A stretch of DNA of 33,170 bases from a virus (IMGVR_UViG_2541047926_000010), one strand, 5' to 3'. Shown: positions 24,680 through 32,941, counted from the first letter of the stretch. Numbers and translations are program-made. The notes: generated by a model not told the origin, from the sequence alone.

Positions 24680-25114
24680 CTAAAAAAGTGAGTTTTGTGT
24701 TGAGGTTCCATTACTCTTTTCCGCAGCAAGAAGCTGCCAACCGAAGCGATCACTAAAACCATACTTAGGGCAAAGAAAGGTCATGGCCATAAGAGAGGAT
24801 GAACCTTGTTCACGCACTTCGGCGAACTCGGCGAGAAAGCGGCGGTTGCGTAATTCACGAAGGGCACGATCACAGCGCGGTAAATAGAGAACTTCTCCGC
24901 CGAAATTCTTGATGAGTAATTGGGTTTTATCATCGCCGATAGTATTGCGCAGGAGGGCTGCGCGGCTGGCCCCCATAGCGCGGAGGCCTTTACCTATCGG
25001 GAACGTGGTGCCACCAAAAGCAGAAAGAAGCTGCTCGGTCGCCGGGAAGCCTATCAGGTCAGCTATTTGAATCACTGCTGATGGCAGCAGCTCCGTTACC
25101 TGTTCCAGATTCAT
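24680..25114 (-). CDS. Mor/C-family transcriptional activator
   Basis: ATG 25114 (MNLEQVTELLP; track ORF begins upstream at 25150); GGEVLYLPR segment resembles the Mor/C conserved core; directly downstream of gemA. Confidence 0.75.
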   Translation of the reverse strand: MNLEQVTELLPSAVIQIADLIGFPATEQLLSAFGGTTFPIGKGLRAMGASRAALLRNTIGDDKTQLLIKNFGGEVLYLPRCDRALRELRNRRFLAEFAEVREQGSSSLMAMTFLCPKYGFSDRFGWQLLAAEKSNGTSTQNSLF

Positions 25115-25535
25115 TATTACGCTCCCGCTTTTTTCGCCGACTCGCATCAATGCTGAGAGCCTGCATGAGTTTGGTTAACTGTTCAGTCGTCAACCACTCG
25201 ATGTATTTGACGTGAAACATATGATCGCACATTTTCTCGGCATAATTCCACGGACGTTTTGCATCTGCAAGTAATGCGTTAATTTTAGAAAGAATTGACT
25301 CGCGCGTATTGGCAACCTTTGGGCGTCGACCGTGTTTTACTGAGTAGCGAGGAAAACCCTTGTCATGCATATATTCCATGACAGCCTGCAGCTCGTCGAG
25401 GGTGCATTTAGTGGATGATGTTTTACCGTTGCATAAGCGAGACAGAACACTACGGTAGGTTACCTCATCCCACCCCAGATATGCCTGACCGGCTTTAATT
25501 GCCCCTATAAGGCCTCGTTTTGCTGGCGTGGACAT
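25059..25535 (-). CDS. gemA: GemA-like protein (DUF1018-like)
   Basis: ATG 25535 with AGGAG 7 nt upstream; N-terminal MSTPAKRGLIGAIKAGQAYLGWDEVTYRSVL typical of the GemA family; followed by a Mor/C gene as in Mu. Confidence 0.75.
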   Translation of the reverse strand: MSTPAKRGLIGAIKAGQAYLGWDEVTYRSVLSRLCNGKTSSTKCTLDELQAVMEYMHDKGFPRYSVKHGRRPKVANTRESILSKINALLADAKRPWNYAEKMCDHMFHVKYIEWLTTEQLTKLMQALSIDASRRKKRERNNESGTGNGAAAISSDSNS

Positions 25536-25563
25536 AATATTTCTCCTGTTGGTTGTCATTATC

Positions 25564-25587
25564 GCAGGCACTTTATGAAGTGCCTGC
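25564..25587 (-). promoter_or_regulatory. Perfect 10-bp inverted repeat with 4-bp centre upstream of gemA
   Basis: Plus GCAGGCACTT TATG AAGTGCCTGC; lies between the last accessory early gene and the gemA ribosome-binding site; no U-tract follows. Confidence 0.4.
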
Positions 25588-25990: not shown

Positions 25991-26205
25991 CACTTTATCC
26001 CCCGAAGTTTCTTGAAAGATTCAATCGCCTTCTTCATATCAGCCTGAGTCCCCTTATTGCGTACCTTACGGTTACTGGCGTCGTAATAGTTGAACCGCAG
26101 CTTAAGTGGCACCGCCAGCAACTCGACAACCTGGCTGTTATCGCGGAAGAACCAGATTCGGCGGTTACCGTTATCCTGGAACTGGCAGCCCGTTACGCTA
26201 TGCAT
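25990..26205 (-). CDS. Small basic early protein (71 aa), unknown function
   Basis: ATG 26205 with GGAGGTGA 5 nt upstream; overlaps upstream stop by 8 nt; Lys/Arg-rich. Confidence 0.55.
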   Translation of the reverse strand: MHSVTGCQFQDNGNRRIWFFRDNSQVVELLAVPLKLRFNYYDASNRKVRNKGTQADMKKAIESFKKLRGIK

Positions 26206-26572
26206 AACTCACCTCCGTTAATGGGTGACGCTTACGGTGGATCGCAATCGACACGCTTTCCCAGTCCTGGTAAAGGAACAGCAGCCCTAGCTCACAGGCG
26301 CGATCAAACTCCCTGGTAGCGCCGGTGCTCTTTTCCCACCCGTTCAGCAGGAATACCGCATCAGCCTGCTCAAGCATGGACAATGTAATTTGCAGGTACT
26401 GCTCATGCTGCAGGCCGTCTGGAAGAATGGCCGGGTTGAGAACGGTGAAGCCGCGCTCTTCCAGGATGCGAGCCTCAGCGTTGAATTCATCGCGGTTAAA
26501 GTTGTGATACCCGGTCATTGGACCGGCAATGAAAACCACTGGCTTACGCTCAGAATGTTTATTTATATTCAT
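26198..26572 (-). CDS. Nucleoside 2-deoxyribosyltransferase-like protein (DUF4406-like)
   Basis: ATG 26572 (track ORF begins at GTG 26638); N-terminal VVFIAGPMTGYHNFN and later VFLLNGWEKSTGATREFDRACELG fit my recollection of the DUF4406 pattern; not verified. Confidence 0.6.
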   Translation of the reverse strand: MNINKHSERKPVVFIAGPMTGYHNFNRDEFNAEARILEERGFTVLNPAILPDGLQHEQYLQITLSMLEQADAVFLLNGWEKSTGATREFDRACELGLLFLYQDWESVSIAIHRKRHPLTEVSYA

Positions 26573-26742
26573 CAGAGAAACCTCACATGATTTTTCCAGC
26601 GGTTCTGTGCAGCGCTGCGTTTCTTCTTGTCGCACCACTCGTTGCCAGGCCGGGGTATCGTTGATGGCCAGCCTGTCATCGCTTTACGGTTACTGAATTT
26701 GAAAGGCATGCGCAGCAGTCTTCTTACTTTGCGGTTTGTCAT
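26572..26742 (-). CDS. Unlisted small basic ORF (56 aa), translationally coupled at both ends
   Basis: Manual translation MTNRKVRRLLRMPFKFSNRKAMTGWPSTIPRPGNEWCDKKKRSAAQNRWKNHVRFL; ATG 26742 overlaps upstream stop (ATGA) and its TGA overlaps the DUF4406 ATG (TGATG); below the ORF-track length cut-off. Confidence 0.4.
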   Translation of the reverse strand: MTNRKVRRLLRMPFKFSNRKAMTGWPSTIPRPGNEWCDKKKRSAAQNRWKNHVRFL

Positions 26743-26999
26743 TTGGCATCCGCCTCAGAGCGAAACATCATGATTGTCAGAGCGCCCTTTGTGGCAAGAC
26801 GAACGGTTGTTCCGGGCTCAATGCTCTGCAGATCGAAAGCGTCGTACAACTCATCAACAGCCTTCTGGCGACGTGATGCCTTGCGGTGTTTATCCCACGA
26901 TTTCAGGACAACAGATGTAAACCACTTACCGGCCTGGACCATGATGAATAGCCAACCCATGAAGGCGAGTCCGGTATTCAAAATTTCGGTGATGGTCAT
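26739..26999 (-). CDS. Small protein with N-terminal membrane anchor (about 86 aa)
   Basis: ATG 26999 preferred over upstream in-frame starts; hydrophobic GLAFMGWLFIMVQAGKWF. Confidence 0.45.
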   Translation of the reverse strand: MTITEILNTGLAFMGWLFIMVQAGKWFTSVVLKSWDKHRKASRRQKAVDELYDAFDLQSIEPGTTVRLATKGALTIMMFRSEADAK

Positions 27000-27003
27000 T
27001 TCT

Positions 27004-27249
27004 CTATTCATCTCCCTGGTCGAACAAGATTCGCGAGTAACCCGCATTGGTAGATACTTCCAGCCATCCATCACACCGTTCACCGGTTCTGAGATTTATC
27101 ACCCGAGAATGCTGGTATTGAGAGCCTCGGATGTCTTCCAGTTCATCATCGCTGAAAAACATCGGCTCTCCGCAGTGAGGGCAGTAGCATCCGTAATCAC
27201 CATCAGCGCGCCCAATTTTGTTAACTATGAGAATTTCGTTGGTAGCCAT
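27004..27249 (-). CDS. Small Cys-rich (zinc-ribbon-like) early protein, 81 aa
   Basis: ATG 27249 with AAGGAG 7 nt upstream; C-Y-C-P-H-C and a further Cys. Confidence 0.5.
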   Translation of the reverse strand: MATNEILIVNKIGRADGDYGCYCPHCGEPMFFSDDELEDIRGSQYQHSRVINLRTGERCDGWLEVSTNAGYSRILFDQGDE

Positions 27250-27250
27250 A

Positions 27251-27598
27251 TCACTCTCCTTTACCGGCAGCGGCAGCGCGTTCTGCGTCATACAGCCATG
27301 CATCAATCGGATTCAATGAGTTTTCGATTGGTGCCCCTCCTGATTGATACATCAGCTGCTTTGCACGTAAAAACAGCTCGTTCACAGCTTCCAGCTCATC
27401 CAGCTGCGCCAGCACATTAGGGTCACTAACATCAACAACCGTTAGCGCGTTGGCACGAGCAAACTGGACATCAAGCGCTGTTGCCAGATTGCGAACCAGC
27501 GCGGCACACTCAGCGCAATGTAGTTCTTTCGCCAGCGCATGCCCGGCTGCTACGAGTTCTTTGACTGGCGTAGTTTCCAGTTGAGGCGAGATTTTCAT
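27251..27598 (-). CDS. Hypothetical early protein (115 aa)
   Basis: ATG 27598 overlaps upstream stop (ATGA); Ala-rich helical character. Confidence 0.5.
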   Translation of the reverse strand: MKISPQLETTPVKELVAAGHALAKELHCAECAALVRNLATALDVQFARANALTVVDVSDPNVLAQLDELEAVNELFLRAKQLMYQSGGAPIENSLNPIDAWLYDAERAAAAGKGE

Positions 27599-29944: not shown

Positions 29945-30838
29945 TTAATGGATCAGCATTTCAGCTATCTGGTTGACGATATGACCGCTGACCGGAACAT
30001 CATTCATCGCGCTGGTGCGGACCGCACCGCGCAGCAGCTTGAACAATCGGCGGGCGTTACCTTTTGACGCATTGAACAGCGCTTTGCTCAGGTCTTCATT
30101 CAGGCCATCCGGGAGAACGCTGCTGGCGATGACGTCAATATCAGCACCCGGCAGGCTATGCCCGAGGTTGAGGGCGAAACCGACACGGCTATAGAGCTGT
30201 ACGAGCTCACCGCGTTTGCCCTTGAGGTTCAGAATCAGGCGAGGCATACCAACCAGGACGATGCCGATCCCCGTTTTGTCATGGATGCGGCGGATAGATT
30301 CCAGCGCACGCAGAGGGAGGTTCTCGGCTTCATCAATAATCAGCACGCGTCCGGAGTCGCGCAGCTTGTTGATGCAGGCCTCGCTGAGTTCGTGCATATT
30401 GCCGCGCGTACTGAGCCCCAGCAGGTTACAGAGCTCTTCCAGGACTACCCGTGCGGTGTAGCCAGGGTCTGCCTCAATCAGCAACGCATCCCGGTATTTG
30501 GAGACGTAGGCTTTGCAAATCATCGTCTTGCCCAGACCGGCTTCGCCGTAGAGCACGTTGATATCACCTTCGACGTGTGCCATGCGTATAACATCAACGG
30601 CTTTGCGCGTTGTTGGGGTATCAACAAATTTGACGCTGATACGTGCCGAACGTTCTTTTTCATGCTGACGATCGATAAAGCTACGAATATCGTTTTCCAG
30701 CGATACAATATCGCCGTCGTATTTATTATTCAGATACTGGCTGATTACGGCCGAGCTCTTACCAATGGCGCGGGCGACCTGTGTCTGGTTAAGACCTTTT
30801 GCTTTCATCAGTTCGACAAGTTCATTTTTAGCTGACAT
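29945..30838 (-). CDS. B: Transposition ATPase / target DNA activator, MuB-like
   Basis: 297 aa; N-terminal helix-turn-helix-like segment (LNQTQVARAIGKSSAVISQYLN), Walker A GEAGLGKT, Walker B-like LIIDEAE; directly downstream of the transposase. Confidence 0.9.
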   Translation of the reverse strand: MSAKNELVELMKAKGLNQTQVARAIGKSSAVISQYLNNKYDGDIVSLENDIRSFIDRQHEKERSARISVKFVDTPTTRKAVDVIRMAHVEGDINVLYGEAGLGKTMICKAYVSKYRDALLIEADPGYTARVVLEELCNLLGLSTRGNMHELSEACINKLRDSGRVLIIDEAENLPLRALESIRRIHDKTGIGIVLVGMPRLILNLKGKRGELVQLYSRVGFALNLGHSLPGADIDVIASSVLPDGLNEDLSKALFNASKGNARRLFKLLRGAVRTSAMNDVPVSGHIVNQIAEMLIH

Positions 30839-30883: not shown

Positions 30884-32941
30884 TCAGAAGGTCGCTTTTT
30901 TATTGCCCTGACTTTTCAGCCATTCTTCACGCTCTGATTCGAACAGGAACACATGTTCCCGAGCATCATTAATACGCTCTGCGTCCGATGGTATTAATGC
31001 GCCGAAATCAGGGTACATATCGCTTTCAGGAAGCAGGCCTCTTGCCTCTGCTTCAATCTCTTCCCGTTGTTCGTCGATGCGCTTCAGACGACGCTGGCGA
31101 CGTTTCTCAACGGCGATATCCATCATGCTGGTTGGCAGCGCGGCACGCTTATTGCCGTTCCAGATGGCGGTGCAGACATAAGTACCGTCCATGCGACGAA
31201 CGATGACGGCAGCAGGGTCGTGAATGTCATAGGCGACCCGGACTTCCTCACCGTCGACCTGTATCAGGTCAGCGCTGAAATACTGGTTATTCATCAGGTC
31301 AATCCAGCCCCGCTGGGCGGTGCGGCACATTTCCGGCATGAAGGCTTCACGAAGCTCGATATCCGTCAGATATTCAATATCGTCACCCTCAGTGGCCAGA
31401 ACCTCGCGGCGGTACTGTGCTGGCGTCATATGCACACCATTACGTTTTGGTAGCTCGCTGTGCTCATGCAGGTTGTTGTATTTGTCGACTTCCTCAGCAA
31501 TGGTATCCAGCAGCATCTGCCACGACGGCAATTTACGCAGCGCGTTACGCTGTACGCTCGTGAGTTCGCGCCCATTCTCCTGAGCCTTAATCGCTGACTG
31601 GATAGCGCGACCGGTCATCCGCACATGCTCACGGTCGGCCCCGAATCCATTGTAAGTATCAAATTTATTGGCAATCGCTCTCGGTATTACGGCGTTCAGT
31701 CGTTCGATAATCCCGCGTGACTGCGGTCGACCCGGAATACTGGTCGGGTGATCAATACCCATGCGAGTGAAAATACCGGTGATATCAGCATCCAGCGTTT
31801 TATTGGTTTCACCGCCACCGTTATCCGAATAGACAAAAAGAGGTTTTCCGTGGAATTTCATGGCGTAGCGATAGGCATCCGCTACGGCGATGACGTTCTC
31901 TGAGAGCGCCAGGCTCCAGCCCACCAGGTAGCGGGTGCGGCCATCGATAACCAGCGTCAGTTCAGGTGTGAATGGACGACCATGGACCGGATGAGCAACT
32001 TTCATATCCAGCGATTTACCATCCGCAATCCAGCAACCATTTACTGGCATTTGTGACCAGTCACGCTTCTGATAAACCTCATAAGCCAGAGCCGCTGAAC
32101 CGCTGATACGGCCGCGAGCGCGTTCACGTTTTGGTAGCTTTTCCATCGCCCGACGCACGGCATCATAAGACGGACAGACGGCGAGCATCGCTGGCTGTCC
32201 CGCATAAATAGCCTGCCATTCAGTCTTGAATGAGCGCCACGCATCCACCAGAGAAGGGCCTGAGAGTTTCCGCCAGTGGGCGAGAAAATCAGGGAGCCAC
32301 TTAATCTGCTCAGGCTTACGCGCTTTAAGATGGCCTGGTGCCAGCAAAGCCAGGCGTTCGATACCTGGACGTGTAGAAAGGTAAACAGACAGCCATTCCT
32401 GAAGTGTTCTTTCGCCCACGCCACGACGGCTGGAACCTTTACGCGCATTGGCAATATCAGCCGCAGCCTGGATGTTTTCCGGCAACGTGCCCTTGCGTGA
32501 CTCTTTGGCGATGAACTCAACCGCCGATGCGCGTGACATACCGATATCCCGAAGACGCTCAACCTCTGCGGCTAATAATGCGCGGGCGTCGGCGATCTGT
32601 TTCTGGCGTTCGGTAAGGTCAGAGACCTCACGCTCCAGCAATACCGGGCACTGCCGCAATAACGTCAGTTCGTCGCGGGTCGTGGTGACTTCCCGCTTTG
32701 GTGCAGTCGGCGCTGATGAACAATCAGACTGTTTCAGCACCTCGCGATAATGCCGGGCTTTGACTATTTCACGCGCCTGTTCAGGCAGGCAGTCGATGTG
32801 GTACTCGAATGCTTTGCTGCCAGCACGTTTGCGAACCAGTTCAGGGGAGTTGCCTGCACTTTTTTTAAGGCTGTATCGCAGTCCTTGTTGTGTTGTTGGC
32901 AGTCCAGGGACGCCAACTAATTCGTTAACAGTCACGAACAT
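30884..32941 (-). CDS. A: DDE transposase, MuA-like
   Basis: 685 aa; size, position between ner and B, Mu transposase-like domain organisation. Confidence 0.9.
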   Translation of the reverse strand: MFVTVNELVGVPGLPTTQQGLRYSLKKSAGNSPELVRKRAGSKAFEYHIDCLPEQAREIVKARHYREVLKQSDCSSAPTAPKREVTTTRDELTLLRQCPVLLEREVSDLTERQKQIADARALLAAEVERLRDIGMSRASAVEFIAKESRKGTLPENIQAAADIANARKGSSRRGVGERTLQEWLSVYLSTRPGIERLALLAPGHLKARKPEQIKWLPDFLAHWRKLSGPSLVDAWRSFKTEWQAIYAGQPAMLAVCPSYDAVRRAMEKLPKRERARGRISGSAALAYEVYQKRDWSQMPVNGCWIADGKSLDMKVAHPVHGRPFTPELTLVIDGRTRYLVGWSLALSENVIAVADAYRYAMKFHGKPLFVYSDNGGGETNKTLDADITGIFTRMGIDHPTSIPGRPQSRGIIERLNAVIPRAIANKFDTYNGFGADREHVRMTGRAIQSAIKAQENGRELTSVQRNALRKLPSWQMLLDTIAEEVDKYNNLHEHSELPKRNGVHMTPAQYRREVLATEGDDIEYLTDIELREAFMPEMCRTAQRGWIDLMNNQYFSADLIQVDGEEVRVAYDIHDPAAVIVRRMDGTYVCTAIWNGNKRAALPTSMMDIAVEKRRQRRLKRIDEQREEIEAEARGLLPESDMYPDFGALIPSDAERINDAREHVFLFESEREEWLKSQGNKKATF

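Follow-up and report, generated by a model that had tools for sequence, protein, structure and literature searches.

Does a 56-codon open reading frame (ORF) lodged between two early genes of a Mu-like prophage encode a protein in its own right and, if so, what might that protein do? The question is raised by the viral sequence IMGVR_UViG_2541047926_000010, a stretch of 33,170 nucleotides (nt) that was analysed at its full length and is called the window throughout. A preliminary description of this DNA had noticed, without stating the strand, an unlisted and highly basic ORF at 26572-26742 that overlaps both of its neighbours. Both the coordinates and the composition are borne out, on the minus strand. 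Translation of the minus-strand ORF 26742..26572 gives MTNRKVRRLLRMPFKFSNRKAMTGWPSTIPRPGNEWCDKKKRSAAQNRWKNHVRFL, a product of 56 amino acids (aa) referred to below as the 56-aa protein, in which 9 Arg and 7 Lys make up 16 of the 56 residues, alongside 2 acidic (Asp + Glu) residues; the computed isoelectric point is ~12 and the mass is 6.8 kDa. The ATGA shared with the upstream stop codon and the TGATG shared with the downstream start codon are also present in the sequence (Table 1). The ORF had gone unlisted owing only to the length cut-off of the first stage of analysis; the identical protein is held by NCBI as a 'hypothetical protein' (Citrobacter freundii and Escherichia coli), on 270 contigs. 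Standard pipelines already call the gene, and its product matches a PHROG; it is of known kinds, here represented by a divergent member.

Homologs of the small ORF in IMG/VR were located by a degenerate-pattern scan, which returned 61 loci. The frame is open in all 61, whereas a random frame of 56 codons would stay open with a chance of ~7% ((61/64)^56). These loci encode 36 distinct proteins and, apart from one of 108 aa with a C-terminal extension, the products are 56-67 aa long (60 loci); variants more than 90% identical to the 56-aa protein occur on ~1000 contigs of Enterobacter and Citrobacter. Among divergent homologs, the proportion of synonymous differences (pS) is 0.69-0.94 as compared to 0.13-0.30 for nonsynonymous differences (pN), as expected for purifying selection in this frame. 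For example, the comparison with L009 gave a pS of 0.77 and a pN of 0.13, with differences distributed 8/9/27 over the three codon positions, and the comparison with L008 gave a pS of 0.94 and a pN of 0.30. The ratio of nonsynonymous to synonymous rates (dN/dS) was 0.08-0.13 for three of the four pairs with a computable dS (0.08 for L012), and 0.78 for the fourth, the near-identical L011, on only 8 differences. Synonymous sites are saturated and third-position changes are in excess across the homologs, and the Cronobacter copy carries an in-frame 12-nt deletion that removes exactly four codons.

The gene is also found beside at least five different sets of neighbours (Table 1), which it abuts or overlaps by 1-8 nt. 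Comparison of the homologs shows the small ORF to be an independent, portable gene module under purifying selection. Conservation in related phages had been proposed earlier as a check; besides the open frames, the 1-8-nt overlaps recur in most contexts. The selection, the 61 open frames, the portability and the purine run upstream of the start support the notion of a real small gene set between coupled neighbours, and we consider it very probably a translated one.

The excess of third-position changes also bears on whether the signal might instead come from an antisense ORF, a structured RNA or some other plus-strand or RNA element. The region is indeed overlapped by plus-strand ORFs of 48-55 aa (26529..26696 and 26627..26773), but the substitutions concentrate at the third positions of the minus-strand frame, Rfam gave no match at an expectation value (E) <=1, and the genes flanking the 56-aa ORF are all on the minus strand. 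In a scan of promoter-like and terminator-like sites, neither was more frequent than in shuffled controls, and no promoter of the ORF's own stood above chance. The likelihood of a plus-strand or RNA element is practically nil. As no promoter or terminator site exceeds the shuffles, the small ORF would therefore be read within a long early transcript.

An alternative gene model, raised in the preliminary description, leaves the small ORF untranslated and begins the DUF4406 gene at GTG 26638 with a 22-residue N-terminal extension, the open frame being coincidental. This GTG is the first possible start in the DUF4406 frame, and neither the window nor several near-identical relatives have a stop in the extension frame. 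However, the L022 relative, whose small protein is 91% identical and is likewise followed by DUF4406, has stops in the extension frame, one of them directly after the GTG. This last stop, a TGA in the extension frame, is produced by a single TGC>TGT substitution that leaves Cys unchanged in the small ORF; at this site, L022:2501-2671 and window 26572-26742 form a natural experiment that separates the two gene models. L004 likewise has an extension-frame stop, right before the GTG. In E. coli FDAARGOS_1303, the DUF4406 ortholog, with DNA 92.7% identical from 23 nt inside the gene onward, starts MSELPRKPVVF at the equivalent ATG behind a GGGAGG of its own; the DNA upstream of it is unrelated and has in-frame stops, and the extension is absent. 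The Pfam DUF4406 domain begins at residue 12 of the product initiated at ATG 26572, and the C-terminal sequence KRSAAQNRWKNH of the small protein, encoded in the region of overlap, is conserved before entirely different downstream genes. In addition, the GTG is preceded by a weak GAG only, as compared to the GAGG 8 nt ahead of ATG 26572. The stops in L022 and L004 and the FDAARGOS_1303 ortholog rule out GTG 26638 as the DUF4406 start, and an untranslated small ORF is barely conceivable. In annotation terms, the small ORF deserves to be retained as a gene, with ATG 26572 as the start of DUF4406.

It could also be argued that the ORF is translated only as a spacer that lets ribosomes proceed from DUF4752 into DUF4406, with no function for the peptide sequence. 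The stop/start overlaps on both sides and the location of the downstream gene's Shine-Dalgarno (SD) sequence inside the last codons of the ORF agree with such a role. The amino acid sequence, however, is strongly conserved while synonymous sites are saturated, the gene moves between unrelated neighbours, and in the FDAARGOS_1303 prophage, which is without the small gene, DUF4406 has its own ribosome-binding site. A pure spacer is highly improbable.

Before the start of the small gene, most orthologs carry GAGGAGG at a 7-nt spacing, and homologs with unrelated upstream genes mostly carry GGAGG, GAGGAGG or AAGGAG 5-10 nt upstream; in some copies the site is weak (AAGGG in phiV10; AGAA in L029, L030 and L076). 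At the other end, most homologs have GTGAGGT or AAAGGAG right before the stop codon, whatever the next gene, and their stops overlap or abut the next start as TGATG, ATGA or TGAtATG. These terminal sequences were seen at window 26576-26587 (minus strand) and at the homolog 3' ends in L001, L002, L008-L012 and L016-L076. The module would thus usually bring its own ribosome hand-off. The C-terminal residues are probably constrained both as protein and as ribosome-binding site, and part of their conservation (R-Y/F-L or K-G-E) would be due to the SD hand-off encoded there. With ATGA and an upstream SD sequence at its start and a terminal SD sequence and TGATG at its end, the ORF appears set up for coupling on both sides, and from this architecture we infer translational coupling to both neighbours.

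What the product might do is suggested by its N-terminus. SRA (RpsV, 'S22') is a 45-aa basic protein that is tightly bound to the 30S subunit in E. coli (PMC10502375). The only NCBIfam match of the 56-aa protein is to the SRA family NF007473 (E 1.4e-4, residues 2-21, 22.3 bits), and 12 of 16 members of its family match the same entry at E<=0.01 (best 5e-10), with no other family matched. When the family alignment was compared by hhalign with an alignment of 16 bona fide SRA sequences, the two were related with 86-88% probability (P 3-5e-6) over 21-22 N-terminal columns. In composition-preserving shuffles, 0 of 1000 reached the real score for 11 of the 16 members, the 56-aa protein included. 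An SRA hidden Markov model (HMM) of our own was also run against a decoy set of 11,547 six-frame stop-to-stop segments from all DNA fetched; the top 18 matches were all family members or two phage proteins that had been found with SRA itself. The SRA consensus M-K-S-N-R-Q-A-R-x-x-L-G-x-x-x-K-x-S-N-Q-x-K is matched at N3, R4, R7, L10, K15, S17, N18 and K20 of the 56-aa protein, while its A and G positions are V6 and R11 here.

A chain of closer similarities leads to the same family. The 56-aa protein aligns with P0118 (52% identity over 52 aa, E 2e-12), P0118 aligns with P0157 (59% identity over 86 aa, E 3e-24), and P0157 passes the Pfam SRA_like gathering score (25.6 as compared to 25), as do P0164 and P0218 (25.6-26.9 for the three). 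Searching with SRA itself by tblastn retrieved a gene of Hafnia phage yong2, annotated by its authors as '30S ribosomal protein subunit S22 family' (MTNRTANRKARRLLGLDYKLSNK...), and gp67 of E. coli phage Sa179lw (MKSNKVARRLLKLDHWESNNKK...), which fall just under the Pfam cut-off at 24.4 and 22.3 bits as compared to 25. A profile of the family together with these two proteins retrieved 133 proteins, mostly from Serratia and Hafnia, of which many have PF08136 matches and several carry the NCBI or UniRef name SRA. Sub-threshold SRA_like matches are already precomputed for the cluster of the 56-aa protein. A phage-only N-terminal profile reached 96.9% probability against SRA (P 1.5e-10), a result that was discounted, as similarity to SRA had been the ground for including two of its sequences. 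Taken from these profile comparisons, homology of the N-terminal ~22 residues to the conserved SRA N-terminus is likely.

Curated thresholds place the 56-aa protein outside the SRA family, and a number of observations weigh against a relationship to SRA or a function drawn from it. The protein scores 22.3 bits where NF007473 requires 35, and it has no Pfam match at E<=1, so that the PF08136 threshold is failed. With our own SRA HMM it reaches 8.2 bits, which does not exceed the 8.5 of the best unrelated decoy (variants with A6 reach 12.6 bits); as it scores at decoy level, the link to SRA rests on its relatives. A profile search of 1.84 billion representative proteins gave 9 matches and did not retrieve SRA. 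Two of these nine, P0008 (1173 aa) and P0014 (170 aa), are repetitive and were regarded as spurious. The similarity spans only ~22 residues of a basic, low-complexity peptide, and the subfamily of phage phiV10 and of Shiga toxin (Stx) phages gives no SRA signal. An AlphaFold2 model built on a 7-sequence alignment is of low confidence (predicted local distance difference test 62.6, predicted template modelling score 0.21). The copy of the PDB that was searched lacks an SRA structure and hence offers no binding mode for the motif, and SRA's own function is unknown (PMC10502375).

The C-terminal half connects the protein to a second group of phage proteins. The match to phrog_1380, of unknown function, has an E of 2e-5 and aligns only residues 39-55 with positions 43-59 of the 62-position profile; the same PHROG is matched by 10 of 16 relatives, the best at 1.2e-33. 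The KRSAAQNRWKNH segment is nearly invariant across the 36 distinct proteins. Full-length relatives with ~41-43% identity were retrieved by tblastn from phiV10 (p51, 'similar to VT2-Sa p08'), TL-2011b and TL-2011c, and further ones at the same identity from the P1-like phage Ro157c2YLVW (gp57), D6 and Sasha-like Salmonella phages. Others are unannotated ORFs in dozens of records of Stx1a- and Stx2a-converting phages. One such homolog, MATNNRKAKMLISRVYRLCYPSQWLRVSNRR...KRSAAQNRWKKH, lies at L013:1360-1626 (Stx2a-converting phage Stx2_6804, LC616047.1) and in ~57 similar Stx1a/Stx2a records, which are almost unannotated. A 100-aa reverse-strand ORF beside it, at 1042-1344, may be an IS3-family transposase orfA. 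These alignments indicate that the 56-aa product belongs to a widespread family of small temperate-phage proteins made up of phrog_1380 and its relatives. Its putative short basic helix, with a conserved Trp and the pattern Q-x-x-W-K, may resemble arginine-rich RNA-binding peptides such as the N-terminus of lambda N; this likeness is supported by no search, family match or profile match, and nothing suggests antitermination.

Overall, the explanation that we favour, with some reserve, is an early-operon accessory gene of a Mu-like prophage whose product would bind RNA or the 30S subunit. The preliminary description had suggested nucleic-acid binding from the Lys and Arg content; by way of the SRA motif, this guess may be sharpened to RNA or ribosome binding. 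The gene would be a genuine, translated accessory gene of the early (semi-essential) operon of a transposable prophage. Its product would be largely disordered alone. It would use the SRA-like N-terminal motif to bind RNA, most likely the host 30S subunit, and the basic C-terminal helix would make a second contact; host ribosomes would then be modulated or protected early after induction. In the AlphaFold2 model, low-confidence helices span residues 4-10, 17-24 and 44-55, and a low-confidence model with three short helices is what would be expected if a basic peptide folds only upon binding its target. A family profile searched by sequence against the PDB copy gave only chance-level matches (E 0.19-0.41). 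Ribosome binding as such is possible and is proposed tentatively.

As the main alternative, the gene may be real while its product does not act on ribosomes, being a generic basic phage protein (DNA-binding or regulatory, anti-defence, or host-killing as in the Mu semi-essential region) in which the SRA-like N-terminus is merely a shared basic module or a product of convergence. Such a role would fit the shortness of the SRA similarity, which is sub-threshold for the 56-aa protein, and the fusion of the same N-terminal motif to many unrelated C-termini in Serratia and Hafnia prophages, suggestive of a generic module. It would also fit the retention of the C-terminal motif without an SRA signal in the phiV10/Stx subfamily and the position of the gene among early accessory genes of unknown function. 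On the other hand, SRA is the sole NCBIfam family matched, by 12 of 16 members, and the shuffles and decoys speak against a match due to composition alone; there were no PADLOC matches, and Pfam found no DNA-binding domain in the 56-aa protein. The varied C-termini on one N-terminus are compatible with ribosome binding as well as with a generic module. A product that does not act on ribosomes is regarded as rather unlikely.

Table 1. Features of the 56-aa ORF and its surroundings in the window, and settings of the small gene in other loci.
Feature	Position or locus	Strand	Remarks
56-aa ORF, coding sequence	26572..26742	minus	ATG 26742-26740, TGA 26574-26572; purifying selection; frame intact in 61/61 viral loci
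SRA-like N-terminal motif, residues 2-22 (TNRKVRRLLRMPFKFSNRKAM)	26677..26739	minus	NF007473, hhalign, shuffles
C-terminal basic motif, residues 39-52 (KKKRSAAQNRWKNH)	26587..26628	minus	common to phrog_1380, phiV10 p51 and Stx-phage homologs
SD-like GAGG	26753..26756	minus	10 nt upstream of the 56-aa ORF ATG
ATGA overlap, DUF4752 stop (TGA)/56-aa ORF start	26739..26742	minus	plus-strand tcat; same 4-nt overlap in L004, L008, L010, L011
GAGG, SD site for DUF4406	26581..26584	minus	last codons GTG AGG TTT CTC TGA, 8 nt before ATG
TGATG overlap, 56-aa ORF stop/DUF4406 start	26570..26574	minus	plus-strand catca; TGA shares its A with the DUF4406 ATG
GTG, candidate DUF4406 start	26636..26638	minus	rejected; first start of 146-aa ORF
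DUF4752 gene, upstream	26739..27011	minus	Pfam PF15944, E 7e-37; 86 aa as called in relatives
DUF4406 gene, downstream	26198..26572	minus	ATG 26572, 124 aa; Pfam PF14359, E 2e-27, domain from residue 12
Mu transposase (MuA)	30884-32941	minus	
MuB-like AAA ATPase	29945-30838	minus	
DUF3164 gene		minus	
DUF2786/DUF7168 gene		minus	
GemA	25059-25571	minus	
Mor	24680-25150	minus	
DUF4752/DUF4406 neighbours, Cronobacter Mu-like prophages	L004-L007		
Mu-like elements, other neighbours	L010		
Directly upstream of gemA	L012		
Phage with RdgC and HNH genes	L008		
Lambdoid phage with RecT/YqaJ/Dam	L009		

In essence, the window comprises a complete Mu-like transposable prophage in minus-strand orientation, with the gene order of the annotated Mu-like prophage in E. 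coli FDAARGOS_1303. The 56-aa ORF belongs to the variable 'semi-essential' early region that separates the B-like gene from gemA/mor. In a DNA similarity search, phage DNA matches to the window end at the DUF4752 gene, at the start of the 56-aa ORF, and the single E. coli DNA match starts 23 nt inside DUF4406 (window 26549-26574). In the FDAARGOS_1303 prophage, an unrelated 153-aa gene and a 127-nt spacer replace the DUF4752 gene and the small ORF (L003:3860-4001). The mosaic junctions around the ORF coincide with gene boundaries. Because the DNA matches break off at both neighbours, the small ORF would constitute a separate mosaic module; on the ORF itself, DNA-level searches of phages and E. 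coli genomes were uninformative. In L016 (IMGVR_UViG_2778261231_000009, 32,704 nt), the small protein is 100% identical to that of the window and the flanks are identical where compared; this may be the same prophage or a near-identical one.

The start of the DUF4752 gene is ambiguous, the candidates being GTG 27083, from which the mechanical ORF runs (114 aa), ATG 27011 (MNREM...) and ATG 26999 (MTITEI..., 86 aa). The Pfam domain fits a start at either ATG, and the longer forms would share DNA with the end of the zinc-ribbon-like gene that lies upstream (27004-27306). An 81-aa protein at 27004-27249 on the minus strand has a CxxC...C motif and a weak zinc-ribbon match (PF09297, E 0.0035, below cut-off), and represents a further small uncharacterised early gene.

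That a small ORF proves to be a gene is routine, and the relationship to SRA is the more interesting lead. Through this gene, the phage early-region mini-proteins of a large uncharacterised family (phrog_1380 and relatives, including those of Stx-converting phages) are connected to SRA, a 30S-bound protein for which function, binding site and origin all await clarification. In a broader scenario, speculative and in our view rather unlikely, temperate phages of Enterobacterales (Mu-like, lambdoid, P22/epsilon15-like, P1-like and possibly Stx) would carry diversified SRA-like mini-proteins that dock on the host 30S subunit early. The chromosomal hibernation factor gene sra would then be part of a mobile pool, domesticated from or captured by phages. 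A 2025 preprint proposes that sra was born de novo in Enterobacteriaceae (10.1101/2025.11.04.686544), and a mobile SRA-like pool offers a testable alternative to that origin. In the literature on PF08136, and on rpsV/Sra together with prophage, no description of phage-encoded SRA relatives was found. If the phage proteins bind ribosomes, they would form a new class of phage-encoded ribosome modulators and provide natural sequence variation for mapping the binding determinants of SRA; if they do not, the gene simply adds to the many conserved hypothetical genes of phages.

Compared with known systems, the 56-aa protein shares with the phrog_1380 relatives its size class, the start M-x-NRKA[KR], an internal SNR[RK] and the nearly invariant C-terminal K[RK]SAAQNRWKNH, as well as an early accessory position and a stop/start junction to the next gene. 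It differs from them in overall sequence, at ~41-43% identity, and in the middle segment (CYPSQWLRV vs MPFKF), and the phiV10/Stx subfamily, unlike the 56-aa protein, has no detectable SRA signal.

The SRA_like proteins of Serratia, Hafnia and Xenorhabdus prophages (for example P0157, P0164 and P0218), together with the yong2 protein and Sa179lw gp67, have the N-terminal motif as in the 56-aa protein, and P0118 also shares SNRKxMxGWPSTI and the basic cluster. They too are encoded among temperate-phage accessory genes; those examined from Serratia are located in lambdoid prophages, where replication genes lie upstream and small accessory genes surround them. Several proteins of this group reach the Pfam gathering score or bear the NCBI name SRA, whereas the 56-aa protein does neither. 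The functional name given to P0147, P0165, P0170, P0181 and P0183 in NCBI, and to the yong2 protein, may be over-transferred: the yong2 protein (L014:2486-2770) is phage-encoded, and the related Serratia proteins P0164 and P0114 lie in prophages. The C-terminal halves of these proteins are different and look shuffled. Among Serratia prophage proteins (P0113, P0013, P0164, P0170, P0183, P0118, P0157 and P0143), the SRA-like N-terminus stands before alternative C-terminal modules, for example ...ALRAEAQEKAL and ...RRAKRLVEEMRIERH..., and the recurrence of the same C-terminal modules behind different middle segments suggests module shuffling within the mini-protein family.

SRA itself is, like the 56-aa protein, small and very basic (45 vs 56 aa) and has the N-terminal motif, which in the 56-aa protein reads TNRKVRRLLRMPFKFSNRKA. 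A relaxed profile alignment, of low confidence, follows SRA colinearly along its entire length and sets the GRKRxA of SRA against KKKRSA. The phage protein differs in having ~10 extra C-terminal residues, which include the invariant QNRWKNH, and in its genetic setting: it is encoded in a phage early operon, with neighbours to which it would be coupled, whereas sra is a chromosomal stationary-phase gene controlled by RpoS and ppGpp (PMC10502375).

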